Source of the DNA: a virus
Length of the DNA: 37,102 bases
UHGV virus genome: UHGV-0134521
Direction: 5' to 3' (one strand)
Below are positions 591 through 37,102 of the stretch, one piece after another. Made by a program: the position numbers and the translations under genes. Below the pieces are notes generated by a model. It was not told the origin of the DNA. It worked only from the letters and a program-made list of their open reading frames with translations, and did no database searches. How positions within the stretch are numbered: the stretch's first letter is position 1; each line of letters starts with the position of its first letter.

Positions 591-616
591 TAAATTTTAG
601 GCAACAAAAAACCCAC
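591..616. repeat. attL: 26-bp direct repeat (TAAATTTTAGGCAACAAAAAACCCAC), one mismatch to copy at 34263..34288
   Basis: Same 26-mer seen at both prophage ends; lies directly after rcdA stop and next to the integrase gene. Confidence 0.65.
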
Positions 617-690: not shown

Positions 691-1743
691 TTACGGGGTA
701 ATGCCAACCGCTGCCGCCACTTTGTCGCCATTTGGTAACGTTGCCAGTGGATTGAAACGGAGCGCCGTTTCCAAATGATCCGGTGCCAGATGCGCATAAC
801 GCATAGTCATTTTTATATCGTGGTGTCCGAGAATTTTTTGTAAGGCCAAGATGTTTCCACCCGACATCATGAAGTGCGCCGCAAACGTATGGCGCAGAAC
901 GTGTGTCAGTTGACCGCGAGGGAGAACGATAGACGTTTTTTCCATCACGGATAAAAATTGAAAATAGCAGTCTGTGAAGAAATTGAACCCATCGAGCGCC
1001 ATGATCTCTTCATAAAGCTCTTTACTGATAGGGATGCTTCTGTTTTTCTTCCCCTTCGTTCTCACAAAGGTGATTCGGTACTTGGTGACCTGTGAGCGGG
1101 TAAGATTGATTGCTTCTCGCCAACGTGCGCCTGTACTTAGACATATTTTTACCACCAGTGCCAGAATTGGGTTCTGACGTTTGCAGTCAGACAGTAATTC
1201 GATGATCTGCTCATGTGTAAGCCATGCCATTTCCTTTTCTGCGATAGTGAATTTGCGCATCTTCTCTAATGGGTTTGGAAGTGTCCATTCACCCAGGCGG
1301 GAAAGTTCTCTGAAAACGCTGCTTAGATGGCTTTGCTCCAGGTTAACAGTAACTGGGCTTGCTCCTTTCTTCCATTTTTCACTGAAGTAGATTTCACCAG
1401 TAAGGCGTTTATCGCGATAGTGAGCAAACATTTTTGAGGTGAGATCGGTTGCAAGGGGATTTCCCAAGGCGTCAACCATCAACAGCAGCTTGCTGTAGAC
1501 ATGCTGTCCGGCAGTAAGAGATTTGCCATGTAATTTGAACCATAGCTCAACCATATCTTTCAGTGTCCGACGATCCACTGATTCGCCCAGCCAGGGCTTT
1601 GCTTCTATTTCACCCATGGTGTATCGCTCGAAGGCCAGTGCTTCGCCTTTGGTGGCGAATTGTTTACGCACACGACGCCCATTACGTCCGGCGGGGTAAC
1701 ATTCGCAAAGCCATTTCCCTGTGGTGAGTTTTCGTACTGCCAT
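691..1743 (-). CDS. int: Tyrosine recombinase / phage integrase (P2 Int-like), about 350 aa
   Basis: C-terminal catalytic motifs (HVLRHTFA..., GHHDIKMTMRYAHL) and N-terminal similarity to P2 Int; ATG at 1743 preceded by GGAGGG; the track ORF to 1899 is an upstream extension. Confidence 0.9.
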   Translation of the reverse strand: MAVRKLTTGKWLCECYPAGRNGRRVRKQFATKGEALAFERYTMGEIEAKPWLGESVDRRTLKDMVELWFKLHGKSLTAGQHVYSKLLLMVDALGNPLATDLTSKMFAHYRDKRLTGEIYFSEKWKKGASPVTVNLEQSHLSSVFRELSRLGEWTLPNPLEKMRKFTIAEKEMAWLTHEQIIELLSDCKRQNPILALVVKICLSTGARWREAINLTRSQVTKYRITFVRTKGKKNRSIPISKELYEEIMALDGFNFFTDCYFQFLSVMEKTSIVLPRGQLTHVLRHTFAAHFMMSGGNILALQKILGHHDIKMTMRYAHLAPDHLETALRFNPLATLPNGDKVAAAVGITP

Positions 1744-1931
1744 AAAAAATGCCCTCCAGTAGAGAGCATTTTCACTGTATGTATAACCAGTGTCAATGTA
1801 TGAAATCCTACGACCATACATCTCACTGAAGCCATAATTAAGTTGGCTATTCTTTTTGCTATGTGAGCATGTAACTTTTGCGGTTAACCTGCGGCTCATT
1901 TTTATTTTAGACGCAGATATAAAAGCAAAAG

Positions 1932-3121: not shown

Positions 3122-3631
3122 ATGTTTGATTACCAAGTTTCCAAACATCCACATTTTGATGAAGCCTGTCGTGCATTCGCACTGCGCCACAATCTGGTGC
3201 AACTGGCAGAACGTGCGGGCATGAATGTGCAGATTCTGCGGAACAAGCTGAACCCAGCTCAACCTCATTTATTAACCGCACCTGAAATCTGGCTGCTTAC
3301 CGATCTGACAGAAGATTCAACGTTGGTAGATGGTTTTCTGGCACAGATTCATTGTCTGCCATGTGTACCGATTAATGAGGTAGCAAAAGAGAAACTGCCG
3401 CATTACGTCATGAGCGCAACTGCAGAGATCGGGCGTGTTGCAGCAGGTGCGGTATCTGGTGATGTAAAAACTAGTGCCGGTCGTCGTGATGCTATCAGCA
3501 GCATTAACTCTGTAACACGACTGATGGCGCTGGCTGCTGTTTCATTGCAGGCCCGTTTACAGGCTAATCCTGCGATGGCGAGTGCAGTTGATACCGTGAC
3601 TGGCCTCGGCGCTTCATTCGGTTTGCTATGA
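3122..3631 (+). CDS. cII: CII-like lysogeny-establishment regulator (phage 186 CII family), 169 aa
   Basis: [24 protein letters not shown]... closely resembles 186 CII as I remember it; GGAG 9 nt before ATG 3122. Confidence 0.8.
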
Positions 3632-5221: not shown

Positions 5222-6075
5222 GCACCATCCTGAAATGGGCGGGAAATAAAACCGCCATTATGTCCGAACTGAAAAAACATCTTCCTGCTGGCCCGCGACT
5301 GGTTGAACCTTTCGCGGGTTCCTGTGCTGTGATGATGGAGACGGATTACCCCAGCTATCTTGTTGCGGATATTAATCCTGATTTAATCAACCTCTATAAA
5401 AAGATTGTCGCTGATTGCGAAGCGTTTATATCTCGTGCCAGAGCTTTATTTGAGGAAGCAAACAGGGATGTGGCTTATTACAACATAAGGCAGGAGTTTA
5501 ATTACTCCACTGAAATTACTGATTTCATGAAAGCGGTATATTTCCTGTATCTCAATCGTCATGGTTACCGTGGGTTATGTCGCTATAACAAGAGCGGGCA
5601 TTTCAACATTCCGTACGGTAATTATAAAAATCCGTATTTCCCTGAAAAAGAAATTCGCGCATTTGCAGAGAAAGCCCAGCGGGCAACGTTTATCTGCGCA
5701 AGCTTTGATGAAACGCTGGCGATGCTGCAGGTGGGGGATGTGGTGTATTGCGATCCGCCGTATGACGGTACGTTTTCCGGCTATCACACTGATGGTTTCA
5801 CTGAAGATGACCAGTATCACCTGGCATCCGTTCTTGAACATCGGTCATCAGAAGGACATCCGGTCATTGTTTCTAACAGTGACACATCCCTGATCCGTTC
5901 GCTGTATCGCAATTTTACTCACCACTACATCAAGGCAAAACGCAGCATCGGTGTGGCAGCTGGTGAGAGTAAATCTGCAACAGAAATCATCGCTGTTTCC
6001 GGGCCGCGCTGCTGGGTGGGATTTGATCCTTCGCGTGGCGTGGATAGTTCAGCCGTGTACGGAGTACGTGCATGA
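5218..6075 (+). CDS. dam: DNA adenine methyltransferase (Dam-like, N6-adenine MTase)
   Basis: N-terminal KWAGNK...EPFAGSCAV (AdoMet binding) and DPPY catalytic motif; ATG 5218 with ACGGAGG SD, overlapping upstream stop. Confidence 0.85.
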
Positions 6076-8486
6076 GTCATGCCGATATGAACAACTGCTG
6101 CGGCTTTAACGAGGCTGCCGCAGCGTTCTCATGGAACAGCCCGAAAAAGGCCATTAACCCTTATCTGGACCCGGCGGAAGTTGCGCCGGTTTCTGCGCTT
6201 TCAAACCTGATCACTCTGTACGCTGCCGATAACGAGCAGGAACAACTGCGCCGCGAGGCACTGAGTGATCAGGTCTGGGAGCGTTATTTTTTTAATGAAT
6301 CACGTGATCCTGTCCAGCGCGAAATGGAGCAGGATAAGCTCATTAGCCGGGCAAAGCTGGCGCATGAGCAGCAGCGTTTTAATCCGGATATGGTCATTCT
6401 GGCGGACGTCAACGCCCAACCTTCCCATATCAGCAAGCCGCTGATGCAACGTATTGAATACTTTAGCAGCCTGGGCAGGCCAAAGGCTTATTCCCGCTAT
6501 TTACGTGAGACGATTAAGCCATGTCTGGAACGACTGGAGCATGTACGCGACAGCCAGCTATCTGCATCTTTTCGTTTTATGGCAAGCCATGAAGGGCTGG
6601 ACGGCCTGCTTATCCTGCCTGAAATGAGTCAGGATCAGGTGAAGCGCCTGTCTACCCTTGTCGCTGCGCATATGAGCATGTGCCTTGATGCCGCTTGTGG
6701 TGATTTGTATGCCACCGATGACGTTAAGCCAGAAGAAATCCGCAAAACATGGGAAAAGGTGGCAGCGGAAACCCTGCGTCTGGATGTTATTCCGCCTGCG
6801 TTTGAGCAACTCCGTCGGAAAAGAAACCGCCGTAAACCCGTGCCCTATGAACTCATTCCGGGTTCGCTGGCGCGTATGTTGTGTGCCGACTGGTGGTATC
6901 GGAAATTATGGAAGATGCGTTGCGAATGGCGGGAAGAGCAGTTGCGTGCTGTCTGCCTGGTCAGCAAAAAAGCATCTCCCTATGTCAGCTATGAAGCCGT
7001 GATGCATAAACGTGAGCAGCGCCGCAAGTCACTGGAGTTTTTCCGTTCTCATGAACTGGTGAACGAAGAGGGCGACACGCTGGATATGGAAGACGTGGTA
7101 AACGCCAGCAGCAGCAACCCGGCGCACCGCCGCAATGAGATGATGGCCTGTGTTAAAGGTCTGGAGCTTATCGCGGAAATGCGTGGTGATTGCGCCGTTT
7201 TCTACACCATTACCTGTCCGTCACGTTTCCATTCCACGCTCAATAACGGCAGACCAAACCCAACCTGGACAAATGCGACGGTAAGACAAAGCAGCGATTA
7301 TCTGGTCGGCATGTTTGCTGCATTTCGTAAGGCGATGCACAAAGCCGGGTTGCGCTGGTATGGCGTGCGGGTGGCTGAGCCGCATCATGACGGTACGGTT
7401 CACTGGCACCTGTTGTGTTTCATGCGCAAAAAAGACCGCCGTGCCATTACTGCATTGTTGCGTAAGTTTGCCATCCGTGAAGACCGCGAGGAACTGGGTA
7501 ATAACACTGGTCCACGCTTTAAATCTGAGCTGATAAACCCGCGCAAAGGAACACCGACAAGCTACATCGCGAAATACATTAGCAAAAACATTGACGGGCG
7601 TGGTCTGGCTGGCGAGATCAGCAAGGAAACGGGTAAATCCCTGCGTGATAACGCTGAATACGTTAATGCCTGGGCGTCTCTGCATCGTGTTCAGCAATTC
7701 CGCTTCTTTGGTATTCCGGGGCGTCAGGCTTACCGTGAACTGCGATTGCTGGCTGGTCAGGCGGCAAGGCAACAGGGCGACAAAAAAGCAGGTGCGCCGG
7801 TACTGGATAACCCGCGCCTTGATGCCATCCTGGCTGCTGCTGATGCTGGTTGTTTTGCCACTTACATCATGAAGCAGGGTGGCGTACTGGTTCCCCGCAA
7901 ATATCACCTCATCAGAACTGCTTATGAAATTAACGAAGAGCCGACCGCCTATGGCGATCACGGCATTCGTATTTATGGCATCTGGTCACCCATTGCAGAG
8001 GGCAAGATCTGCACTCATGCAGTGAAGTGGAAAATAGTTCGTAAAGCCGTTGACGTTCAGGAGGCGGTAGCCGACCAGGGCGCTTGCGCCCCTTGGACTC
8101 GTGGCAATAACTGTCCCCTTGCTGAAAATTTGAACCAACAGGAGAAAGATAAATCAGCTGATGGGGACCCCAGAACGGACATTACCAGCATGGATGACAA
8201 GGAGTTGCACGATTACCTGCACAGTATGAACAAAAAAGAGCGCCGGGAACTGGCTGCAAGGTTACGCCTGGTGAAACCGAAACGGCGTAAAGACTACAAA
8301 CAGCGAATTACAGACCATCAGCGACTGCAGCTCGTGTATGAGCTGAAGTCCAGAGGATTTGATGGCAGCGAGAAAGAGGTCGATTTACTCCTTCGCGGAG
8401 GCAGTATTCCGTCAGGAGCAGGCCTGCGTATCTTCTATCGGAACCAGCGTTTGCAAGAAGATGATCAGTGGCGGAACCTGTATTAA
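6072..8486 (+). CDS. A: Replication initiation protein A (P2 gpA-like rolling-circle endonuclease), 804 aa
   Basis: Size, position after early genes, ATGA overlap with dam, P2 A-like sequence. Confidence 0.9.
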
Positions 8487-8578
8487 TTACGCGGGTTAAC
8501 AATTCGTGCTCTTAATAATACCAGGCATATCAGGCTGATGAACGTAAAAAAACGTTTTACATCAGTAAGATTATTATA

Positions 8579-8598
8579 TACTGTAAATATAAACAGTG
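8579..8598. promoter_or_regulatory. LexA box (TACTGTAAATATAAACAGTG; CTGT-N8-ACAG) upstream of the small-ORF + DinI-like operon
   Basis: Matches the LexA consensus CTGT-N8-ACAG within an AT-rich promoter-like region about 40 bp before ATG 8640. Confidence 0.6.
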
Positions 8599-8639
8599 GT
8601 TATACATACAGCATTGCGTGTGGTGTCATAGGAGGAAAG

Positions 8640-8828
8640 ATGCAGGACTATTTTTTGGAGTCTTTGAAGCTCCAGCGCATTGATTTTTTTCTTAAGCTTG
8701 TAGCGGCTAGTGAGTGTAGTGATGAAGAGAAGGGGCTGGCTCTGCAGTGGGTTTCTGAATTGACTGATGAACTCATGGCAAAAATCAGAACCCACGAATA
8801 CAACCGCTCAATGGATGTCATCAGCTGA
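8640..8828 (+). CDS. Small protein, 62 aa, first gene of the LexA-controlled operon (possible Tum-like antirepressor component)
   Basis: ATG at 8640 after GGAGGA; immediately downstream of the LexA box. Confidence 0.5.
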   Translation: MQDYFLESLKLQRIDFFLKLVAASECSDEEKGLALQWVSELTDELMAKIRTHEYNRSMDVIS

Positions 8829-8838
8829 GGTGACTTTT

Positions 8839-9072
8839 ATGCGCATTGAAATAATGATCGATAAAGAGCAGAAGATTAGCCAGTCTACCCTGGACGCCCT
8901 TGAATCCGAGCTTTACCGCAATCTGCGCCCCCTGTATCCCAAAACGGTAATTCGCATTCGCAAAGGTAGCTCTAACGGTGTGGAACTAACCGGACTGCAA
9001 CTGGACGAAGAAAGAAAACAAGTGATGAAAATTATGCAGAAGGTGTGGGAAGACGACAGCTGGCTGCATTAA
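8839..9072 (+). CDS. DinI-family protein, 77 aa
   Basis: MRIEIMIDKEQKI...WEDDSWLH resembles E. coli DinI (MRIEVTIAK...W...DDWF); GAGGTGA SD. Confidence 0.7.
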   Translation: MRIEIMIDKEQKISQSTLDALESELYRNLRPLYPKTVIRIRKGSSNGVELTGLQLDEERKQVMKIMQKVWEDDSWLH

Positions 9073-9207
9073 GAAACGTTGCTGGCGTCTGAACTTGCTT
9101 CTGGCGTCAGCAAGGTTGAACAACGAGCCCTTGCGAGGCGTTAACTCTGTAGTGCATGTCTATGCCGCATGAGATCGCATGATCGTTTGAGGATCGTTTT
9201 TGCTAAG

Positions 9208-9231
9208 GCCCGCCAGAACTGGCGGGCTTTT
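9208..9231 (+). terminator. Rho-independent terminator after the DinI-like operon
   Basis: GCCCGCCA / TGGCGGGC stem with short loop, followed by TTTTG. Confidence 0.55.
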
Positions 9232-9276
9232 GCGTAGATCATGCAGGTGCATGAAAACCACTACATAAAGCGGGCA

Positions 9277-9295
9277 GGCGTGGCGGGGATACGAG
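9277..9295. other. Putative cos site (GGCGTGGCGGGGATACGAG)
   Basis: Resembles the 19-nt P2/186 cohesive-end sequence from memory (first 13 nt match my recollection of 186 cos); placed between the right-end tum-like operon and the left-end portal gene as expected. Confidence 0.45.
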
Positions 9296-9309
9296 CGCGC
9301 GCTGAGTAA

Positions 9310-9343
9310 ATCCATTGCGCCAGCTAATCCAATGGATTACAAT
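9310..9343 (+). promoter_or_regulatory. Candidate sigma70 promoter (-35 TTGCGC 9315..9320, -10 TACAAT 9338..9343) with 7-bp inverted repeat TCCATTG/CAATGGA (9310..9316, 9331..9337)
   Basis: Hexamers with 17-bp spacing read from sequence; inverted repeat brackets the spacer; about 25 bp upstream of cassette gene 1. Confidence 0.35.
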
Positions 9344-9365
9344 GTTATATTTACTGAGGGCATGT

Positions 9366-10022
9366 ATGAAAGAAAAAATGATAAATGAAATGCCATCGGC
9401 CCATATTAAGCAGTTAAGGGCCAAAACTGGTTTAACTCAAGAGGAATTTTGCGAGACTTTCGGTCTTAATCTCAACACCTATCGTCATTGGGAGAGGGGG
9501 GATAGAAAACCAACTGGCTCATCATTAGTTTTGCTAAAACTTATTGAGGAGTCTTTTCACGAAGTGCTATCAATTATGAAAAAAATCAAGGGGGATGGTC
9601 CAATAATGTCAGATGGTAAAACACTTATACTTAAATCACTTGAACAAGATAGATTTTTCACTTTTGAACGTTTTGTAAAAGAAAGTTCTTTTTTTTCTGC
9701 GGATGCCATTTGTGCTCTTATTAAAGCTAATGGTTTTCCTTATGTTTATTTTTCAAATAACCAAGGGGAACTTGTATTTTCAGCAGGTTATGAAATTGAA
9801 GATATGAAAGAAGTGTTCTGGGTCAAGAATGATGATAGAACATATGGTGGATCTCTCAAAACTGTCGTTGAAAAAACTTATAGTTCAATCTATGCGATAG
9901 AAGTTGACCTGCAAGATGCTGTTTATTGGACTCCGGAAATGAGAAACTCAAGAATAGTCGATATTACCGAGAAAACAGGAATTGAACGTGACTTTTTTAA
10001 CAATATTTTAAGGAATTGGTAG
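9366..10022 (+). CDS. Cassette gene 1: XRE-family HTH domain (HigA/MqsA-antitoxin-like) fused to a ~160-aa C-terminal domain of unknown function
   Basis: N-terminal KQLRAKTGLTQEEFCETFGLNLNTYRHWERGDRKPTGSSLVLLKLIEE is a typical XRE HTH; ATG 9366 after GAGGG; AT-rich. Confidence 0.65.
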   Translation: MKEKMINEMPSAHIKQLRAKTGLTQEEFCETFGLNLNTYRHWERGDRKPTGSSLVLLKLIEESFHEVLSIMKKIKGDGPIMSDGKTLILKSLEQDRFFTFERFVKESSFFSADAICALIKANGFPYVYFSNNQGELVFSAGYEIEDMKEVFWVKNDDRTYGGSLKTVVEKTYSSIYAIEVDLQDAVYWTPEMRNSRIVDITEKTGIERDFFNNILRNW

Positions 10023-10023
10023 T

Positions 10024-10695
10024 ATGCGTGGTAAACTAATCAGCTTTGAAGGTATTGATGGTAGTGGGAAAGGAACTCAATCGAAGCTGCTTTTCGAAAA
10101 ACTAAATGCAATAGGGGAAACGGCAAAGCTATTTAGTTTTCCTTGTTACGAGAATACTTTTTTTGGAAAAGAAATAGGTGCATTTTTGAGAGGTGAATTT
10201 GGCGGGATTAATGATGTACATCCTAAACTCGCTTCAATTTTATACGCAATGGATCGTTTTGAGAAAAGGCAAGAAATTGTAAGTTCCTTAGATCAAGGAA
10301 TTGTAGTAATTTGTGACCGTTATGTCGATTCTAATATCGCGCATCAATCGTCTAAACTTGCAGTTTCTCAGCAGAAGGAATTTATTGATTGGGTTAGTGC
10401 ATTAGAATATGAATTTAATAAAATGCCTGTGCCTGATTTAACATTTTTCCTGAATGTTCCTTTGGATATTTCAAAGGAAATGGTACTGAAGAAGAAAAAA
10501 AGAAGCTACACTGACTCCGAAGAAGATATACATGAAAGAGCATATGATTATTTAGAAAGAGTATTGTTAGCATACAATAAAATTGATTTCGGCACGCGCT
10601 GGAACTTAATTGAGTGCTGTAATAATAATAATCTGATGGATCCTGAGTCAATAAGTGATTTAATATTTAAAATTGTCATGAAAGGGCTTAGATAA
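10024..10695 (+). CDS. Cassette gene 2: thymidylate-kinase-fold P-loop NMP kinase-like protein, 223 aa
   Basis: FEGIDGSGKGTQ P-loop-like segment, CDRYVDSNIAHQS (Tmk DRY motif) and PDLTFFLNVPLDIS (Tmk PDLT motif); start 1 nt after gene 1 stop. Confidence 0.7.
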   Translation: MRGKLISFEGIDGSGKGTQSKLLFEKLNAIGETAKLFSFPCYENTFFGKEIGAFLRGEFGGINDVHPKLASILYAMDRFEKRQEIVSSLDQGIVVICDRYVDSNIAHQSSKLAVSQQKEFIDWVSALEYEFNKMPVPDLTFFLNVPLDISKEMVLKKKKRSYTDSEEDIHERAYDYLERVLLAYNKIDFGTRWNLIECCNNNNLMDPESISDLIFKIVMKGLR

Positions 10696-11615
10696 TGCAC
10701 GAGTTGTTGAGAAAAAAACACTCTAGGAATAGTTTCATTACTCTATTTGTTATAGTTGTAACATTAATACTGCTTCTTCGGTATGCTGTACTTCCTTATT
10801 TTTACCCTCCACAATCAACTGATTTTGGGGGCTTTATTGCGACATTATTAAATGGGCTATTTTCATCCTTAACAGTAACCTTCTTGATCGGTTTATTTAT
10901 GTTTTGGATTCAGCCGAAACCTGAAAATTATGCTAAAATAGAAATTGCATATCCTAAAGAATTACCAGAACTTTTCAATGTTGCGTTCCTTAAAACGGAA
11001 ATTTGGTATTATAAAGGTGGATGTGGAAGATATTTTAGAACAGCTACGTTACCAAATATGGCGAAACAGGCTAGATCAAAGTCACAGTCAAAAGAAATTT
11101 TGGTTGTTATCCTTGATCCAACTAATATTGATTTATGTGAAAAACACGCTATTTACAGAAGTGGTACAGCATCACAAGAAATTGAAATTAGGCCTTGGAC
11201 AACAGAGGAAGTTCGCGCTGAGTTGTTTGCAACGATTATTACAACGCTAATTACTCAAGCCAAAGAACCTTCATTAAGAATAAAATTATCATTATGCCCT
11301 CACTATTCATCTTTTAGGATAGATTTATCAGATGATTACGCTATTATTACAAAGGAAGATCGCAATTCTCCGGCCATTATATGTCATAAGGGGACTCATT
11401 TTTATAAATCTTATAAAGATGAAGTAATTTTGTCTCTAAACCAATCACGTAGTGTTCGTATGATAGATCAAGTTGATTTTACTCTAAGAGATATTGATGG
11501 CACGAAAGTTAAATCTTTGTTATCTGATGCTGGTTTAGATGATAACAATCTCACGCCGACTTTCTATGACAAGGTCGCGTCGTTATGTAAAGAGGCGAAA
11601 AATCCATATGCATGA
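10695..11615 (+). CDS. Cassette gene 3: membrane protein with two N-terminal transmembrane helices and a ~230-aa soluble domain, 306 aa
   Basis: Two hydrophobic stretches near the N-terminus (FITLFVIVVTLILLL; LFSSLTVTFLIGLFMFWI); start overlaps gene 2 stop (TAATG). Confidence 0.6.
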   Translation: MHELLRKKHSRNSFITLFVIVVTLILLLRYAVLPYFYPPQSTDFGGFIATLLNGLFSSLTVTFLIGLFMFWIQPKPENYAKIEIAYPKELPELFNVAFLKTEIWYYKGGCGRYFRTATLPNMAKQARSKSQSKEILVVILDPTNIDLCEKHAIYRSGTASQEIEIRPWTTEEVRAELFATIITTLITQAKEPSLRIKLSLCPHYSSFRIDLSDDYAIITKEDRNSPAIICHKGTHFYKSYKDEVILSLNQSRSVRMIDQVDFTLRDIDGTKVKSLLSDAGLDDNNLTPTFYDKVASLCKEAKNPYA

Positions 11616-12246
11616 TTATATGAATGAAATCTATCAAAAAATAACTAATAAAGAATCGTTCGATGTTAAACGTTTCTTTACTTGCTTGGTTGATAATTTT
11701 GATAATTTTGATCCTACTTGGCATGCATTGGGATTTATTCATTGCCGTTTAGCTCAGAATGATCAAGGGACTTTACGCTTACATATTTGGTTCAAAAATG
11801 ATTCACATCCTGCTGAACAGTTAGAAAAAATTCATGATCATAAATTCTCGTTGAATAGCTATGTGTTGTACGGTGCAATATGTAACGAGGTTTTTGAACT
11901 TATAGAAACGTCATCTGGAAAATATGATTACCAGGCCTATGCAGTTAAATATCTTGATAAAGGTTCAGAGTTAATCCCTTTAGCCACTTATTATAATGTT
12001 AGTGATGTATCTTCAAGTATAATAAGGGCTGGTTGTTATTATACGGTTGACTCCAGAGAGTTTCACCGATCATCACTTGTAAATAGTGAGATGGCGATAT
12101 CACTAGTGGCGACTTTTGAGCATAAAAATAAAGACCCTTTGACTTTGGTATCTCATGGGGGGAGTGAGTTTAAAATAAGAGATAAGGTTCCATTTGATAA
12201 GAACAAATGGGTGGAGATATTAAAAGAATACATATCAAAATTATGA
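11608..12246 (+). CDS. Cassette gene 4: hypothetical soluble protein, ~212 aa
   Basis: In-frame ATG at 11608 overlapping gene 3 stop by 8 nt; His-rich segments; no family recognised. Confidence 0.55.
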   Translation: MHDYMNEIYQKITNKESFDVKRFFTCLVDNFDNFDPTWHALGFIHCRLAQNDQGTLRLHIWFKNDSHPAEQLEKIHDHKFSLNSYVLYGAICNEVFELIETSSGKYDYQAYAVKYLDKGSELIPLATYYNVSDVSSSIIRAGCYYTVDSREFHRSSLVNSEMAISLVATFEHKNKDPLTLVSHGGSEFKIRDKVPFDKNKWVEILKEYISKL

Positions 12247-12253
12247 TGTTAGC

Positions 12254-12277
12254 TGCCAGATAGGATTTATCTGGCAG
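12254..12277. terminator. Hairpin (CTGCCAGATA / TATCTGGCAG) between convergent cassette gene 4 and portal gene
   Basis: Perfect 10-bp stem, short loop, followed by TGGGTTT on the + strand. Confidence 0.5.
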
Positions 12278-12282
12278 TGGGT

Positions 12283-13311
12283 TTAATTTAACTCGTATTG
12301 CCTAAAGCGAATAATTTCATCCCCAGCCCATGGATTTAATGCGAGAAATTTCTTCTGTAACGGAAGTAGTTCATTTTTGACGAAAACATTCGCAGCCTTC
12401 TCCACGTCCCCAAACCCCCCAACATTATTCGGCATAATCCCCATCATCTGTGGCGGAACACGATGCGCGGCCATCATGTCATCACGACTCACGTTCTTGA
12501 TGTTCAGAAATTCATCTTTCGCTGCAACTTCTGACAACGGGATGATCTGAAGCCCGTCCTTTTTGCCGTTAGGCGAGTACATAAACAGGTTACGGAAGTT
12601 ACCCGGACCTTTGGCACTTTTCATCGCGTTGCGGAGGTTGTTTACGTCCTCCTGGTTCTGCGCGGCATCGGTCATGTACATGATGAAGCCAGCATGACTG
12701 CCGTTAATGTAATACTTCCGGCGGAACAGCGTGGCGGACTCGTTGAGCAGGGCTGACGGAATGGCAGAAAGATAACCGGGCAGGCCGTAGATCTCCTGGT
12801 TGATGTCCGGTTCCATCAGATGAAAGATGCTGCCTTTCGTGAACTGATATGGCTGGGTTGTCATACCGTATTGCACAAACCAGTAGGTATCCAGGTCTAA
12901 CCCGCGTCGTGTGTATTTCGCCAGGGCAGGTTCAAGGGCGATAACTTCACCGAAGCGGTTCGTGCGTTTCTCCAGGTAGGCGTTACCAAATACCAGATAG
13001 TCCTGCACAAAACGTGAAAAAGCCTGCTGGCTGAGCAGCGTGTGAGGGATGTAGGTACTGGTCAGAATGTTGCATTTCACCGCAATTGGTGAACTGTGAT
13101 GCACGGCAGCGCGGAAGGTGCGCGCCAGTCCGTCAAAGCTTACTGGCGGCTCATACCAGCGATCTGTCTGTACGCATTCCACATAGTCCAGCAGTTCGCG
13201 GCGGTCCAGAACAGGAACGGGATCACCGAAGCTGAATGCTTCGGCTGAAGTCTGGCTTTTATGCTGGATCTGGTTCGTCGATGCAGCGCGGTTCTTCTTA
13301 CTCTTGCCCAT
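12283..13311 (-). CDS. Q: Capsid portal protein (P2 gpQ-like)
   Basis: P2 Q-like sequence and position; ATG at 13311 overlaps P stop by 1 nt. Confidence 0.9.
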   Translation of the reverse strand: MGKSKKNRAASTNQIQHKSQTSAEAFSFGDPVPVLDRRELLDYVECVQTDRWYEPPVSFDGLARTFRAAVHHSSPIAVKCNILTSTYIPHTLLSQQAFSRFVQDYLVFGNAYLEKRTNRFGEVIALEPALAKYTRRGLDLDTYWFVQYGMTTQPYQFTKGSIFHLMEPDINQEIYGLPGYLSAIPSALLNESATLFRRKYYINGSHAGFIMYMTDAAQNQEDVNNLRNAMKSAKGPGNFRNLFMYSPNGKKDGLQIIPLSEVAAKDEFLNIKNVSRDDMMAAHRVPPQMMGIMPNNVGGFGDVEKAANVFVKNELLPLQKKFLALNPWAGDEIIRFRQYELN

Positions 13312-15077
13312 CAAAAAATCTCCACAATATTGCTGGTATTGGCGGACTCGCCCTGCAGCGGTTCGTTAAACAGTGCGTGCATTGTTGCCCAGGCCAGATC
13401 CGCATGGCTGGCTTCTTCGCTGCGGCTGGCTTCATAGGTCGGGCGGTTGCCGCTGGCGGTGGTGGCGCGACGGATTGCCATAAATGACTGCGCTATGTCG
13501 GTGTGTCCGGCGTCAAACTCCAGACGGCGGTGACTGATAATGTCGTAGGCCTTGAGTACCAGGGCGTTTTTAACGTTGGGGTTGTAGACAAACTCCCGGA
13601 CGGCAGGAAAGAACGCTTTCACGTTCTCGTAAACCCCGTGGCCGACACCTGTCGAGTCGATGCCGATATAGGTCACGTTGTACTGCTCGGTCAGTTTTTT
13701 GATGGCGTCTGCCTGGGCGCGGAAGTCCATCCCGCGCCACTGGTGACGCTCAAGAATGCGGAACTTACCACCAGGCACGGCTGGCGGCGCCACCACCACG
13801 CATCCGGCGCTGTCGCCGTTTTGCGTACCTTTTGCCGGGTCATAACCGATCCACACTTCGCGCCAGCCAAACGGGCGCAGAGCCAGTGCATGAAAGTCGG
13901 TCCAGACTTCCCAGCTGTCCACCATGCACGCCTGCAGCTCGCTGAGCGGGAACACGGACGCGAGATCGTCCACAAACTCGCACATCAGCAGGTTCTGGTA
14001 TTCGTCCGGGCTGTACTCCATGCGCAACTGGTCAAGGTCGAACAGGTTACAGCCGCCGCGCACCGCATCTTCCACGGTGACTATCTGGCGGTATTGCCCG
14101 TCAGCGCACAGCAGGCCGGGGGCCAGATTGCTGTGGGACAGGTCGATGTCCACCTTATCGGCTTTGTTGCGCCCACGGTTGAATAGCGCACCGGACCAGA
14201 ACGGATAAGCACTGTGTGTCAGGCTGGATGGCGTGGAAAAATAGGTTTGTCGCCATTTCTTGTGAATAGCCATACCGGAAGCCACTTTGCGCAGCTCCTG
14301 GAATTTCGGTATCCAGAAATATTCATCCAGATACAGGTTGCCGTGATAACTCTGGGCAGTGCGGGCATTGGTGCCGAGGAAGTAAAGCGTGGCCCCGTTA
14401 GGAAGCACCATCGGATCGCCTTTCAACTCCACCTCCACTTCTTTGGCGAAGTCGATGATGTACTGCTTAAAGACGTTGGCCTGTGCCTTGCTGGCGGAAA
14501 GGAAAATCTGGTTACGTCCGGCCAGCAGGGCGTCAATCAGGGCTTCACGGGCAAAGTAAAATGTCGCGCCGATCTGGCGTGACTTCAGCAGGTTGCGGAT
14601 GCGGTTGGTTTTTCCGGCTTCCCACCAGTGGCGCTGGTAGTTGAACATGGAGGAATGGAAGATTTCTTCCAGCTTCTCAATCTGCTCATCGGTGAAATCA
14701 TTCTTTTCCGGCTGACGGCGTGGGCCTTTGTTGCGGTTGGCGACGTTAGGGTTTAAGTCGGATTCGTTGCCGCCATTGTTAAACTTGCCGATCCGCGCGT
14801 GGCGCTCAGACTGGCGCGCCAGCAGGTCAATCTCTTTGAAATCTTTCCCTTCTTTGTGCTCCTTCATGATGAGCTGGCAGTAGCGTGCGGCGGTGGTGAG
14901 CTGCATCTGATCCAGCGGCCCATAGTCACCCCACTTGTCGCGTTTTTTCCAGCTGTGAACGGTTGCAACTTTCTCGCCCAGCATTTCAGCAATGCGGGCT
15001 ACGCGGTATCCCTGAAAGTACAGCAGCATGGCCTGCCGACGGGGATCGAGATCTGTGGGTGTCAGTGTGGTGTTCAT
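13311..15077 (-). CDS. P: Terminase large (ATPase) subunit (P2 gpP-like), 588 aa
   Basis: Size, position divergent from O, P2 P-like sequence. Confidence 0.9.
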   Translation of the reverse strand: MNTTLTPTDLDPRRQAMLLYFQGYRVARIAEMLGEKVATVHSWKKRDKWGDYGPLDQMQLTTAARYCQLIMKEHKEGKDFKEIDLLARQSERHARIGKFNNGGNESDLNPNVANRNKGPRRQPEKNDFTDEQIEKLEEIFHSSMFNYQRHWWEAGKTNRIRNLLKSRQIGATFYFAREALIDALLAGRNQIFLSASKAQANVFKQYIIDFAKEVEVELKGDPMVLPNGATLYFLGTNARTAQSYHGNLYLDEYFWIPKFQELRKVASGMAIHKKWRQTYFSTPSSLTHSAYPFWSGALFNRGRNKADKVDIDLSHSNLAPGLLCADGQYRQIVTVEDAVRGGCNLFDLDQLRMEYSPDEYQNLLMCEFVDDLASVFPLSELQACMVDSWEVWTDFHALALRPFGWREVWIGYDPAKGTQNGDSAGCVVVAPPAVPGGKFRILERHQWRGMDFRAQADAIKKLTEQYNVTYIGIDSTGVGHGVYENVKAFFPAVREFVYNPNVKNALVLKAYDIISHRRLEFDAGHTDIAQSFMAIRRATTASGNRPTYEASRSEEASHADLAWATMHALFNEPLQGESANTSNIVEIF

Positions 15078-17131: not shown

Positions 17132-17782
17132 ATGAGCCTGAGTCCCGCACGGCAGCATCGCCTGCGCGTTCAGGCTGAACAGGCCGCCCGCGAGGGCGGC
17201 AGTGTTCGCCACGCATCGGGCTATGACCTGATGCTGCTGCAACTGGCGGAAGACCGCCGCCGTCTCAAGGGCGTTCAGTCCACGGTCAAAAAAGCGGAAA
17301 TCAAGGTGGAGCTGCTGCCGAAGTACGCCGCCTGGGCGGAGGGCGTCCTGGCTGCCGGAGGCGCTCAACAGGATGACGTGCTGATGTACGTGATGCTGTG
17401 GCGCATTGATGCCGGAGATTATGCCGGGGCGCTGGAGATTGGGCGTCATGCCCTGCGTCATGGCTGGGTGATGCCGCTGGGTAACCGCAACGTGCAGACC
17501 GTGCTGGCAGAGGAAATGGCAGATGCAGCGCAGAGCGCAATGCTTGCCGCCACCGGCTTTGATGCCGATCTGTTGCTGCAGACGCTGGAGCTGACAGACG
17601 GTCTGGATATGCCGGACCAGTCACGGGCGCGTCTGCATAAAGCGATTGGCGCTGTCCTGAGTGAAAGCAATCCGGCTTCCGCCCTTAATCATCTCAACCA
17701 TGCGTTACAGCTCGATCCCCGCTGTGGCGTGAAAAAAGACAAACAGCAGCTGGAGCGCAGACTGCGCAATGACAGCCGCTGA
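17132..17782 (+). CDS. M: Terminase small / endonuclease subunit (gpM-like)
   Basis: Position and size, P2 M-like. Confidence 0.85.
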   Translation: MSLSPARQHRLRVQAEQAAREGGSVRHASGYDLMLLQLAEDRRRLKGVQSTVKKAEIKVELLPKYAAWAEGVLAAGGAQQDDVLMYVMLWRIDAGDYAGALEIGRHALRHGWVMPLGNRNVQTVLAEEMADAAQSAMLAATGFDADLLLQTLELTDGLDMPDQSRARLHKAIGAVLSESNPASALNHLNHALQLDPRCGVKKDKQQLERRLRNDSR

Positions 17783-20194: not shown

Positions 20195-20588
20195 AGCAGT
20201 GCCTTATGTCCGTAATAACCCGGACAAACTGCATCTGTTTGTGGATAACGGTTCGCTGGTTGCCACCGGGGCCAGCTCCATGTCATGGGAGTACCGCTAC
20301 ACCCTGAACGTGGTGATTGAAGATTTCAGCGGCGACCAGAATCTGCTGATGGCCCCGGTTTTGCTGTGGCTGCGGGATAACCAGTCTGATGCCATCAATA
20401 ACCCGGCGTTACGGGAAAAGCTATTCACCTTTGAGGTGGATATTCTGCGCAACGATGTCTGTGATATCAGCCTGAACCTGCAGCTGACGGAGCGTGTGCT
20501 GGTCAGCACTGACGGAAGTGTGTCGAGCGTTGAAGCGATAACGGAACCCGATGAACCTGAAGAAATGTGGACGGTGAAACGTGGCTGA
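20157..20588 (+). CDS. R: Tail completion protein (gpR-like)
   Basis: P2 R-like sequence from GTG 20157 after AGGAG; the track ORF begins at an upstream TTG. Confidence 0.75.
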   Translation: MNKPQSLRHALNKAVPYVRNNPDKLHLFVDNGSLVATGASSMSWEYRYTLNVVIEDFSGDQNLLMAPVLLWLRDNQSDAINNPALREKLFTFEVDILRNDVCDISLNLQLTERVLVSTDGSVSSVEAITEPDEPEEMWTVKRG

Positions 20589-21142: not shown

Positions 21143-21943
21143 ATGTCTGAAAAGTTAATTTTTTTATCCCATATAACAGAAGAAAAAGAATTAGCGAAAA
21201 TAATCAAAGATGCAATTGAAGACGAGTTTTCTGGATTCGTTGAAGTGTTTGTATCGTCAGATGGGAATACAATTAAAGCCGGTCAAAATTTCTTAAATGT
21301 TATTGAAAATGGGTTAGTAAATTGTATTGCTGCTATTTATCTGATAAGCCCAGAATCTGTCCAGAGAAGCTGGATTAGTTTTGAGTTAGGGGCTGTATGG
21401 GTTAGAAATGCTATCAGCCGGCAAAACGGCGGGCCAGAAATCCCTGCTATTCCTTTTTGCCACTCGGATATGACGTTTAGAGACTTGCCCCAACCTATCT
21501 GTAATCTAAATGGTATTGAAGCAAACCGATCTCATTCCTTGGAGTTTGCATTTAAGTCGATTCAGACCGCTGTTGGAGGAAAAGGACGATTGAGAACTGA
21601 TTTTGATGTTCTTGCCGAGAAAGTTAACATTTTTGAGAGAGATTATACAGTCTTCAAAAGTATAGGCGAAATTCTCGGTTTAATTGGTGTAGATAGCCAG
21701 CGTCGCGCACAATTAGTTCAGCTTGTTAATAGTTCAGCAGAGAATGAAGTTATAATTAAAACTGATACTAGGCAGGATTCAGCAGATATAATATTTAAAT
21801 TAGTTGATACTAAGTTAAGTCATTTCGCTAAATATAAAGTAACATCTTCTGGTTTAGGTATGGGACTTCAAGGCGCTTCTCCTTTCTGTGAATTTGAATT
21901 GAGAATGGATCGGAAAATACTCAGTGATTACTTGGCTCGATAG
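21143..21943 (+). CDS. TIR-like domain protein (N-terminal ~130 aa) with C-terminal domain of unknown function, 266 aa; moron between S and V
   Basis: LIFLSH...VEVFVSSDG...IAAIYLISPESVQRSWISFELGAVW follows TIR strand-helix topology including the S-x-W-x-x-E-L element; GGAGG SD; AT-rich. Confidence 0.55.
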   Translation: MSEKLIFLSHITEEKELAKIIKDAIEDEFSGFVEVFVSSDGNTIKAGQNFLNVIENGLVNCIAAIYLISPESVQRSWISFELGAVWVRNAISRQNGGPEIPAIPFCHSDMTFRDLPQPICNLNGIEANRSHSLEFAFKSIQTAVGGKGRLRTDFDVLAEKVNIFERDYTVFKSIGEILGLIGVDSQRRAQLVQLVNSSAENEVIIKTDTRQDSADIIFKLVDTKLSHFAKYKVTSSGLGMGLQGASPFCEFELRMDRKILSDYLAR

Positions 21944-34262: not shown

Positions 34263-34288
34263 TAAATTTCAGGCAACAAAAAACCCAC
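34263..34288. repeat. attR: 26-bp direct repeat (TAAATTTCAGGCAACAAAAAACCCAC)
   Basis: Pairs with 591..616, one mismatch. Confidence 0.65.
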
Positions 34289-34432
34289 CAACCTTGAACC
34301 GAAATGGCGGGGTTGATGGGCTCCACAAAATGGGGACATCAAAGAAAAGCAGTGGCACTAATTAAGACTGATGCCCTGCGGAAAAGTTCTGCGGTTGTGC
34401 AAAAAAATTTCATTTTCAGGGCAACTTCAGTT

Positions 34433-36118
34433 TTATCCTAATCCTGGCCATACCATGACGATGATTGTCCCTGCCAGCGTCAGCAGGACGTTGGCGATTG
34501 CGTAAGTGCCCGCATAGCCCAGCGCCGGGATATTACTGCGAGCTGTATCACTGATGATCTCCATTGCCGGCGCGCAGGTGCGTGCGCCCATCATTGCGCC
34601 GAACAACAGTGCGCGGTTCATTCGCAATACATAAGCACCGAACAAGAAGCAGATAACCACTGGCACCAGACTGACAATCAATCCGGCAATCAACATTTGA
34701 CCGCCAATCGCGCCCAGGCCGTTATTAATACCGCTACCGGCGCTCAGACCAACGCCTGCCATAAACACCATCAAGCCGAACTCTTTCACCATGCTTAATG
34801 CACCTTGCGGAATGTAACCGAAGGTCGGGTGGTTAGCACGCATAAAGCCCAGCATAATTCCGGCGAATAACAACCCGGCAGCGTTCCCCATGCCGAAACT
34901 GAATGTGCTGAACTGGAAGGTGATCATCCCGATCATCAGCCCAATAACAAAGAAGGCGCAGAATGCCAGCAAGTCAGTGACCTGGCTGTGAATCGAGATA
35001 AAGCCGATGCGATCGGCGATGGTTTTTACGCGACGGGCATCGCCGCTGACTTGTAAAACGTCACCTTTGTTAAGCACGACGTTGTCATCAATCGGCATCT
35101 CAATCTGGCTACGAATGACGCGGTTAAGGAAGCAACCGTGATCGGTCAACTTCAGTTGTGCGAGACGTTTGCCTACAGCGTTATGGTTTTTAACGACCAC
35201 TTCTTCAGTGACGATACGCATGTCGAGAAGGTCACGATCGAAAACTTCTTTGCCATTACGGAAACTGGGATCGAGTCGGGCGTGGGCGTCGGGATAGCCT
35301 ACCAACGCTATTTCATCGCCCATTTGTAGCACGGCATCACCGTCTGGATTTGCCAGAATCCCGTTACGTCGAATACGTTCAATGTAGCAGCCGGTTTGTC
35401 GATAAATACCCAGTTCACGCAGATTTTTGCCGTCGGTCCAGGCCACCAGCTCCGGGCCGACGCGGTAGGCGCGGATCACCGGCAAATAAACCTTACGGTT
35501 GGCATCTGTGTCCAGGCCACGTTCGCGGGCGATTTGCTGGGCGCTGGTCTGTAAGTCCTGATGCTGCAATTTCGGCAAGTAACGCGCACCAACAATCAAA
35601 CTCACCAGACCGATTAAATAGGTTAAGGCATACCCGAGGCTCAGATTATCCAGTGCCAGTGAGAGCTGCCTGCTTTCCATGCCGGAATGACGCAGTGTAT
35701 CGCCAGCACCGACCAAAACCGGTGTTGACGTCATAGAGCCTGCTAACATACCGGCCGTCAGGCCAATATCCCAGCCAAACAGCTTACCTAACCCTAAGGC
35801 GATGACCAGCGCACTGCCAACCATCACCAGTGCTAACATTAGGTAATTTTTCCCATCGCGAAAAAAAATGGAAAAAAAGTTCGGTCCGGCTTCGACCCCG
35901 ACGCAGAAAATAAACAGCATAAAGCCAAGATTAAGCGCGTCGGTGTTAATGCTGAAATGTTGTTGGCCTAATAACAGCGATACGACTAAAACGCCAATGG
36001 AATTACCCAGTTGGATCGAACCAAGTCGTAATTTCCCGAGACATAGCCCAAGCGCGAGGACCACAAATAATAACAGAATGTAATTCCCATTTAACAATTC
36101 GGCGACGTTTATATTCAC
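34433..36118 (-). CDS. ybjL: Putative transporter YbjL (two-TrkA_C-domain membrane protein), 561 aa
   Basis: Sequence recognised as E. coli YbjL; multi-TM termini with central soluble domains; GTG start. Confidence 0.85.
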
Positions 36119-36387
36119 GGAGGCTAACTTCTTGTTTACTAGTAAGCTGTTGAAAGAAATGGTAATTTACGATAATGTTTTTTACCAGAATTCAGGGCGC
36201 AGATTCATTCAGCGCACCTAAACGATAGTAAAGTAACAATATATTTTACTAGTGTAATCACATTAGGTATCAACGGCTATATGAATTGCGTTGGCCTATA
36301 TTAGCATGGAATGCGAAGCGGCTTTATCTTACTGAACGCCACACTGGCGAAAAATGTGTTCGATAGACGCAGTGTCAGGAGGAACGA

Positions 36388-36765
36388 GTGAAACATAAAC
36401 AACGTTGGGCGGGGGCAATCTGCTGTTTTGTCCTCTTCATTGTGGTGTGCCTTTTTCTGGCGACGCACATGAAAGGCGCTTTTCGGGCTGCCGGGCATCC
36501 TGAAATCGGCTTGCTGTTTTTCATTCTTCCTGGAGCAGTTGCCAGCTTCTTTTCACAGCGTAGAGAAGTCCTGAAACCTCTGTTTGGCGCAATGCTGGCG
36601 GCACCCTGTTCAATGCTTATTATGCGGCTGTTTTTTTCACCGACGCGCTCATTCTGGCAAGAGCTGGCATGGTTATTAAGTGCGGTGTTCTGGTGTGCGC
36701 TGGGGGCACTGTGTTTCTTATTTATCAGTAGTTTGTTTAAACCACAGCACAGAAAAAATCAATAA
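36388..36765 (+). CDS. ybjM: Inner membrane protein YbjM, 125 aa
   Basis: Hydrophobic small protein in the expected host position between ybjL and grxA. Confidence 0.75.
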   Translation: MKHKQRWAGAICCFVLFIVVCLFLATHMKGAFRAAGHPEIGLLFFILPGAVASFFSQRREVLKPLFGAMLAAPCSMLIMRLFFSPTRSFWQELAWLLSAVFWCALGALCFLFISSLFKPQHRKNQ

Positions 36766-36784
36766 AGCCCTCAACGCGAGGGCT
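36766..36784. terminator. Hairpin AGCCCTC-(5 nt)-GAGGGCT between convergent ybjM and grxA
   Basis: 7-bp perfect stem read from sequence; T-rich flank on the minus strand. Confidence 0.45.
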
Positions 36785-36794
36785 TGTCAGACGA

Positions 36795-37052
36795 TCAGGC
36801 GTCCAGATTCTCTTTCACCCATGCAGCAAAATCGGTATAGCCGCCGATATGTTGCTGATCGACAAAAATCTGCGGCACGGTTTCTACGGGTTTACCTGCC
36901 TTTTGTTGTAGATCTTCTTTAGTGATCCCTTCCGCACGAATATCTACATACTGATACTGAAAATCATCGCGTTCATTGCTCAATTTCTCAGCCAGATCTT
37001 TTGCACGCACACAGTAAGGGCAACCCGGACGACCAAAAATAACGGTTTGCAT
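36795..37052 (-). CDS. grxA: Glutaredoxin 1
   Basis: MQTVIFGRPGCPYCVRAKDLAEKL... with CPYC active site; ATG at 37052 after GAGGAG; the track ORF adds 5 upstream codons. Confidence 0.9.
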   Translation of the reverse strand: MQTVIFGRPGCPYCVRAKDLAEKLSNERDDFQYQYVDIRAEGITKEDLQQKAGKPVETVPQIFVDQQHIGGYTDFAAWVKENLDA

Positions 37053-37102
37053 TATTTCTCTCCTCAAAGATTTATGCCTGTAATGATCACGCTAAAATGT
37101 AT

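Follow-up and report, generated by a model that had tools for sequence, protein, structure and literature searches.

The question raised by this locus is whether a 19-mer in a P2-like prophage is the cos site at which the phage genome would be cut for packaging and, if it is, on which side of that site a low-GC cassette of four genes is carried. The window, by which we mean the whole stretch of 37,102 nt that was analyzed (UHGV virus genome UHGV-0134521), had been given an initial annotation from its letters alone. It proposed that the 19-mer at 9277–9295 resembles the cohesive ends of phages P2 and 186, that it lies between a Tum-like operon at the right end of the phage genome and gene Q at the left end, that the cassette would then occupy the interval between cos and Q and not the old/tin side, and that such a placement bears on how cargo is gained at genome termini. 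Our comparisons of the sequence with reference phages and with related prophages indicate that 9277–9295 is very probably the cos of an intact 186/Fels-2-like E. coli prophage.

Results

The Prophage and the Genes Around the Site

The window represents a P2-like prophage of E. coli, and its flank at 34300–37102 comprises ybjL-ybjM-grxA with 99.8–100% identity to the best-matching E. coli genomes. The features identified are listed in Table 1. The att repeats are 33,672 bp apart, which gives the length of the prophage unit; genomes of the family are 30.6–35.6 kb. The genes examined, int, A, Q, P, O, N, M, L, D and ogr, which include those for terminase, portal and capsid, are all full-length, and judged on these features the prophage is apparently intact. 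The 790-bp interval between A and cos holds the LexA box, the 62-aa gene and the DinI-like operon and nothing else, a layout like that of the p95-tum SOS operon at the right end of 186. By analogy, the LexA box and DinI-like operon suggest that the prophage would be SOS-inducible through an antirepressor. On the other side, the left end, Q comes first among the core genes, and its stop codon is 2,987 bp to the right of cos. With the DinI-like gene ending at 9072 and Q on the minus strand at 12283–13314, the 19-mer does lie between the Tum-like operon and Q, as had been proposed. The gpP-like protein is expected to cut cos and the gpM-like protein to recognize it.

Table 1. Features of the window, with positions counted from its first letter.
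Feature	Position	Strand	Evidence
attL core AGGCAACAAAAAACCCAC	599–616	+	18-bp direct repeat with 34271–34288
Integrase gene	691–1899	-	Full-length
Replication gene A	6072–8486		
Right-end SOS operon	8579–9072	+	LexA box, 62-aa gene, DinI/Tum-like gene
LexA box TACTGTAAATATAAACAGTG	8579–8598	+	Perfect CTGT-N8-ACAG at 8581–8596
62-aa gene	8640–8828	+	PHROG 698; gene calls in identical contigs
DinI/Tum-like gene	8839–9072, or from 8767	+	PF06183 DinI, 1.3e-22
Predicted complete cos module, ~-125 to +26 from first base of 19-mer	9152–9303	+	Profile match, conservation limits
Three GCATG repeats	9154–9158, 9167–9171, 9177–9181	+	(T)GCAT(G) at equal ungapped positions in P2/186/P4
GC-rich hairpin GCCCGCCAG-AA-CTGGCGGGC (9208–9227), then TTTT	9208–9231	+	Inverted repeat
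Predicted 55-bp cos core, TGCATGAAAACCACTACATAAAGCGGGCA / 19-mer / CGCGCGC	9248–9302	+	Invariant-position pattern
Predicted 19-nt 5' cohesive end	9277–9295	+	Alignment to P2/186; same as SEN8 predicted cos
Low-GC cargo cassette, four co-oriented genes, Q side of cos	9366–12246	+	GC, family matches
HTH_3/MqsA-like regulator, extra C-terminal domain	9366–10022	+	Pfam/PADLOC/NCBIfam/PHROGs searches
dTMP-kinase-like protein	10024–10695	+	PF02223 2.4e-24; TIGR00041 86.5 bits, cut-off 83.25; PADLOC PDC-M51B 2.3e-10
Predicted membrane protein, hydrophobic N-terminal segments, without family match	10695–11615	+	
Fourth cassette protein	11608–12246	+	PHROG 4784, function unknown
Terminator-like hairpin, 12-pair stem	12252–12278	+	Between cassette and Q; 4 bp from Q stop
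Portal gene Q	12283–13314	-	PF04860; 66–67% nt identity to P2 Q and 186 W
Large terminase subunit, gpP-like	13311–15077	-	PF03237, PF17289, PF06056
Small terminase subunit, gpM-like	17132–17782	+	PF05944, 2.2e-40
attR core	34271–34288	+	18-bp repeat; E. coli ybjL-ybjM-grxA beyond

Two other stretches of low GC were observed elsewhere in the prophage. A second island, at 21143–21943 in the late-gene region, has a GC of 0.37 as compared with ~0.55 around it, and encodes a 266-aa TIR-domain protein (PF13676, 1.5e-07; PHROG 29177); this island probably marks a further cargo slot. The stretch of lowest GC in the left arm (2001–2500, 0.35) lies in the interval from the integrase gene to the early region, and overlaps an ORF of 218 aa at 2139–2795 on the minus strand.

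The 19-mer and the Cohesive Ends of P2 and 186

The letters of the window at 9277–9295 are GGCGTGGCGGGGATACGAG, and the cohesive ends in the reference records are GGCGAGGCGGGGAAAGCAC for P2 (NC_001895, 1–19) and GGCGTGGCGGGGAAAGCAT for 186 (NC_001317, 1–19). In an alignment anchored on the cut, the window 19-mer has 15/19 identity to 186 and 14/19 to P2. Positions 1–13 are the same as in 186, and every mismatch to 186 falls within positions 14–19, which read TACGAG in the window, AAGCAT in 186 and AAGCAC in P2. By itself this match is within chance and constitutes weak evidence: an identity of at least 15/19 to the 186 end was reached in 134 of 1000 Markov shuffles of the window (~13%), and a second match, of 14/19, is present at window position 20405. 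Since the 19-mer alone is within chance, its flanks had to be tested, and it is the flanks that give the match its significance.

The Predicted cos Module

The ends of the P2, 186 and P4 records were joined, and the sequences were anchored on the cut and then aligned with the window. Around the cut, the alignment of all four is free of gaps between about -125 and +26, and the similarity to the P2 and 186 cos sequences for which the initial annotation had suggested looking is present. The 37 positions invariant across the cores of P2, 186, P4 and the window have, as a pattern, one match in the window (9248–9302) and none in 100 shuffles; this pattern was derived with the window among its sources, and the unbiased test is a profile of P2, 186 and P4 only. 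That profile has a single match in the window, at 9152–9304, with an E value of 1.7e-18 and no gap over 153 positions. The resemblance to the P2/186 cohesive end that was noted initially is real (15/19 to 186), and it is the profile over the flanks that places it beyond chance.

The anatomy of the module is shared among these phages. Blocks common to the window, P2, 186 and P4 are CATGCAnnTGCATKAAAACC at window 9240–9259, AAAGYGGGCR at 9267–9276 and YGCGCGC at 9296–9302, and the cos sites of 186, P2 and P4 are like that of the window in having TGCATNAAAACC, AAAGYGGGCR and YGCGCGC at equal distances from the cut. According to papers that cite Ziermann and Calendar (1990), a 55-bp core is common to P2 and P4 (PMC5694545, PMC3931495). 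Further upstream, three GCATG repeats and a GC-rich hairpin are spaced from the cut in 186, P2 and P4 as they are in the window. The counterpart of the hairpin in 186, CGCCAGAGCTGGCG, is at an equal distance from the cut, and that in P4 is looser and imperfect. The GCATG repeats may be binding sites of the small terminase subunit, candidates to which their conservation and their likeness to lambda cosB both point, and the hairpin is likely the terminator of the DinI/Tum-like operon, located inside the cos module.

These elements were assessed in a conservation set of 60 distinct cos regions, namely the window, P2, 186, P4 and 56 loci found via Q homologs in species-representative genomes. Column conservation was 0.75–0.96 from -125 to +26 and 0.41–0.47 directly past +26, and the consensus of the 60 sequences retains both the positions of the GCATG repeats and the GC hairpin at 9208–9231. 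In addition, the bases at both predicted nicks (marked here by a slash) are conserved, GGGCA/GGCG on the left and /CGCGCGC on the right. A 19-mer of the window type, varying at position 13 alone, was found at the equivalent place in 50 of 80 Q-homolog loci, which were from different species, almost all of them Enterobacterales. Together, the alignments support homology of 9277–9295 to the experimentally defined cos of P2, 186 and P4 over ~150 bp and in register with the cut. The position on the map is also that of the 186 and P2 cos, flanked by the replication/SOS genes on one side and by the portal gene on the other. The spacing from cos to the portal gene differs, being 167–176 bp in 186 and P2 and 2,987 bp in the window.

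Earlier Annotations of the Same cos Variant

The variant of cos in the window had been annotated before. Salmonella phage SEN8 (Felsduovirus), which was isolated from a lysogen and lyses Salmonella isolates, has a published cos, 'ggcgtggcggggatacgag', that was predicted by annotation (PMC5427200). It is the same as the window 19-mer, and the SEN8 record (KT630647.2) begins with that 19-mer. The core in Escherichia phage Cartapus has one difference from that of the window and is annotated as 'putative cos site, homologous to the cos of P2 phage'. Identity to the window over the 149-bp cos module is 100% in vB_EcoM-813R9, 96% in Fels-2 and 95% in RE-2010. No experimentally mapped virion ends for phages with the TACGAG variant were found in the literature, the sites in SEN8 and Cartapus being annotation-derived.

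The IMG/VR contigs with the exact 19-mer are mostly prophages from isolate genomes, and in the 80 stretches listed, of at least 120 matched, the 19-mer was always internal, so that none of those contigs ended at it. Among the 80 IMG/VR loci with the TACGAG-variant 19-mer that were examined there were no homologs of P4 sid, psu, delta or alpha; P4-like elements were seen with the P2-type 19-mer only, and thus no satellite among these loci can act as an independent functional witness for the variant. One contig, IMGVR_UViG_3300011853_000021, has the exact 19-mer twice, at 3447–3465 and 6704–6722, in opposite orientations and ~3.2 kb apart, which could reflect a rearrangement, adjacent elements or misassembly.

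The Four-Gene Cassette

The GC of the cassette is 0.33–0.35 over 9501–12000, as opposed to 0.52–0.60 in most structural and flanking phage genes. Its PADLOC matches are weak, consisting of PDC-M51B for the kinase-like protein (Table 1) and a generic HTH for the regulator. PADLOC had no match for the third and fourth proteins, and neither did a PDB sequence search with those two at E values up to 1. All four genes, with 78–87% aa identity, are present in the cos-to-Q slot of a Raoultella planticola prophage (7081–9958 of that locus). An identical dTMP-kinase-like protein is encoded by contigs in 364 index blocks of an assembly collection, and the prophage context was unchanged wherever it was read. 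The predicted P-loop of this kinase-like protein is GIDGSGKGT, at residues 10–18. The 5,426 complete E. coli genomes, the 50,697 phage records (blastn) and the IMG/VR loci with the exact 19-mer that were searched all lacked the cassette. It could be considered a candidate for an uncharacterized defense system.

A consensus scan of the stretch from cos to the first cassette gene identified no sigma-70 promoter. By eye, TTGCGC-17-TACAAT can be seen at 9315–9343, its -35 hexamer matching at 3/6 positions only. A perfect 9-bp inverted repeat, AATCCATTG-N12-CAATGGATT, is present at 9309–9338, just past the cos core and ahead of the HTH gene, and could be the operator of the cassette regulator. At the other end of the cassette, the position of the hairpin at 12252–12278 matches that of the terminators tQ in P2 and tW in 186.

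Borders of the Slot and Diversity of its Cargo

Relatives with 99% identity to the window as far as 9302 diverge from it at 9302–9306 and carry other cargo, such as the TIR gene that phage 500465-1, and the Hypoth_Ymh gene that 813R9, have in place of the cassette past 9302. The left border is apparent from a contig (L093) that shares the cassette and the cos module from 9153 at 99.7% identity and has other genes (DUF6694) to the left of 9153. The left break in this contig and the right break in the relatives together make cos a conserved island of ~151 bp between two variable intervals. At the right border of the slot, homology to relatives is back at 12283–12395, mostly within the last 25–37 codons of Q. 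The 3' end of Q has a mosaic character, with homology to dozens of relatives resuming at two recurrent positions, 12353 and 12395; those last 25–37 codons seem either to travel with the cargo or to form discrete variants. In complete E. coli genomes, the equivalent flanks enclose genes for HIRAN, HipA, DUF262/HEPN, TIR, P-loop NTPase and GTP pyrophosphokinase proteins, among others.

The extent to which each side of cos is loaded varies with lineage (Table 2). For this comparison, P2-type loci from IMG/VR (L218–L297) were set against TACGAG-type loci (L096–L175). Cargo is present between cos and Q in ~84% of the TACGAG-type loci, and the A side is often loaded too. The placement of the window cassette between cos and Q is the majority state of its clade and is not unusual.

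Table 2. Lengths of the intervals on either side of cos, by type of locus.
Loci	Q-side interval	A-side interval
58 species-level loci, strong profile match, mostly TACGAG-type	cos-to-Q 148–3,499 bp, median 1,599; at least 600 bp in 49/58	A-to-cos 460–4,390 bp
54 IMG/VR loci, exact 19-mer, independent sample	cos-to-Q 145–3,528 bp; at least 600 bp in 45/54	A-to-cos 461–3,800 bp
59 loci with P2-type 19-mer	cos-to-Q 157–173 bp in 54/59 (~169 bp)	A-to-cos 906–5,672 bp
P4-like satellites, P2-type 19-mer	cos-to-int 947–3,216 bp	psu-to-cos fixed, 167–176 bp

Clustering of the intervals gave 94 Q-side clusters in 123 loci and 45 A-side clusters in 109 loci. The A-side type of the window was paired with 18 Q-side types, and the Q-side type represented by its cassette with three A-side types. 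Such mixed pairings indicate that the two sides assort independently.

Discussion

Position of the Cassette and a Model of Packaging

Our preferred reading, to which we assign a probability of roughly 0.9, is that 9152–9303 serves as the packaging site, cos, of a P2-like E. coli prophage that is related to 186 and Fels-2 and appears intact, and that the cassette is carried in its cos-to-portal slot. A cos at 9277–9295 would put the cassette, which at 9366–12246 lies to the right of it, between cos and Q, where the virion chromosome has its left end, and in this respect the initial annotation was correct. In P2, tin and old are between A and cosR; the cassette of the window is on the opposite side of cos and hence is not in the TO region.

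On this reading, SOS induction, excision and replication would be followed by binding of the terminase, composed of gpM (17132–17782) and gpP (13311–15077), to the cos module. Binding would probably be via the GCATG repeats and the TGCATGAAAACC box, and would be on the future right end of the virion chromosome. By comparison with the annotation of 186 and P2, the terminase would cut the top strand immediately 5' of G9277 and, 19 nt away, the bottom strand following G9295. The packaged molecule, linear and ~33.7 kb long, would thus begin with the 5' overhang GGCGTGGCGGGGATACGAG. From there it would read through the cassette, Q and P into the genes for structural proteins, then ogr, attP and int, and last the genes of regulation and replication and the DinI/Tum-like operon, with the other end at 9276–9295. 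The foreign DNA would start just past the last conserved cos position (+26) and stop at the terminator hairpin beside Q. In this scheme we infer the inducibility of the prophage, the exact positions of the nicks and the motifs bound by terminase, and because positions 14–19 of the overhang differ from those of P2 and 186, nicks at identical positions are an assumption.

Nothing specific appears from these comparisons to be required beyond +26. This is because SEN8, a phage that has been recovered, has unrelated DNA directly after CGCGCGC, as does the Cartapus record, and because P4, which is packaged by the P2 terminase, diverges from P2 past +26.

Alternative Explanations for the Site

It is possible, but in our view unlikely, that the cos homolog is real and the prophage defective, so that its cos is a relic that is no longer cut. 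Many enterobacterial P2-like prophages are cryptic, and with the cassette-bearing prophage missing from all of the complete E. coli genomes and phage records searched, there is no virion of it on record. Against this are the full length of every gene examined and the presence of the att repeats, the 100% identity of the cos module to that of a phage record (vB_EcoM-813R9), and a unit of 33.7 kb that fits the capsid range of the family. In addition, the presence of an identical kinase-like protein in 364 assembly index blocks suggests that the element has spread.

Less likely still is a cos that functions with nicks or an overhang length unlike those of P2 and 186, for instance shifted cuts or ends of 21 nt. 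The differences at positions 14–19 of the 19-mer would be compatible with such a shift, and phiCTX, a member of the family, does have 21-nt ends. Every conserved flanking element, however, is ungapped in its spacing to the 19-mer relative to P2, 186 and P4, and the bases beside both predicted nicks are conserved, which argues for cuts at the equivalent places. The idea that the 19-mer resembles cos by chance, through its high GC, and that packaging starts from some other site, which the frequency of such matches in shuffled windows (13%) might have suggested, is effectively refuted by the P2, 186 and P4 profile, which has no other match in the window, by the absence of the core pattern from all shuffles, and by the conservation of the position in scores of related prophages.

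Gain of Cargo Beside cos

If the 19-mer is cos, as we consider very probable, the cassette does occupy the left end of the genome; the proposal that this placement bears on cargo gain at termini finds weak support. The breakpoints of the cargo coincide with the limits of the cos module (-125 and +27) and not with the cut, a pattern that would fit selection keeping cos intact, combined with exchange through flanking homology. Capture of cargo at free DNA ends was considered and is unlikely, as the junctions are at the borders of the conserved module and not at the nicks. Instead, junctions at the module borders, together with the reassortment of the two sides, would fit recombination through the cos module and through gene Q or A.

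Relationship to Known Slots

The sequence of cos, the cos-to-portal slot, which has been recognized since the 1990s, and the cos-adjacent hotspot are all already known, and our findings represent no new principle. As cited in PMC5694545, PMC7826664 and PMC6868368, Dodd and Egan (1996, Virology 219:115) described retrons Ec67 and Ec86 as replacing the DNA from cos to the terminator in a 186-related prophage. As far as the title of that study and the citing papers allow a comparison, the retron slot, from cos to the terminator before the packaging/portal gene, is the same as that of the window cassette, and the prophage appears to be of the same lineage as that in the window, with Dam methylase, TraR/DksA and DUF2732 genes. 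The cargo differs, being a retron in the one case and the HTH, dTMP-kinase-like, membrane and unknown proteins in the other.

The order of cosL, a rightward ctx, terminators and a leftward Q in Pseudomonas phage phiCTX is also that seen in the window, although phiCTX differs in its 21-nt ends, its host and its single toxin gene. Closer to the window, SEN8, Cartapus and Fels-2 likewise have cargo in the interval from cos to the portal gene, but of different kinds, namely a hypothetical protein and an HNH endonuclease in SEN8, DUF4145 in Cartapus and an ORF of 565 aa in Fels-2.

In E. coli, the cos-proximal region between gpA and gpQ is a defense hotspot with 1,650 gene arrangements, and P4-like satellites have a cos-adjacent hotspot of their own (Rousset et al. 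2022, PMC9122126); the former was confirmed on 8,165 prophages (PMC13586616). The window cassette is inside this hotspot and, like its known occupants, is AT-rich and swapped for unrelated systems in close relatives. Both studies treat the hotspot as one locus, whereas in the window cos divides the A-to-Q region and the cassette is on the Q side of it.

A wider reading, which we put forward tentatively and would not favor strongly, is that the ~150-bp cos module is a fixed anchor that makes the gpA-gpQ hotspot two independently assorting slots with lineage-specific use, and that the four-gene system on the Q side, which E. coli and Raoultella share as a conserved unit, may act against phages in a way not yet described. 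The lineage-specific use would show in P2-type prophages varying on the A side, in the TACGAG-type clade loading the Q side and often the A side, and in P4-like satellites varying on the Q-side-equivalent side only.

Conclusions

Locating cos would fix the ends of the virion chromosome, and would make the cassette packaged cargo at its extreme left end. Recognition of a slot in which relatives swap defense-type genes helps the annotation of this prophage and frames the cassette as a candidate defense system. The finding offers one small quantitative refinement, in that cos parts two independently assorting slots which P2-type phages, phages related to Fels-2 and 186, and P4-like satellites use differently.
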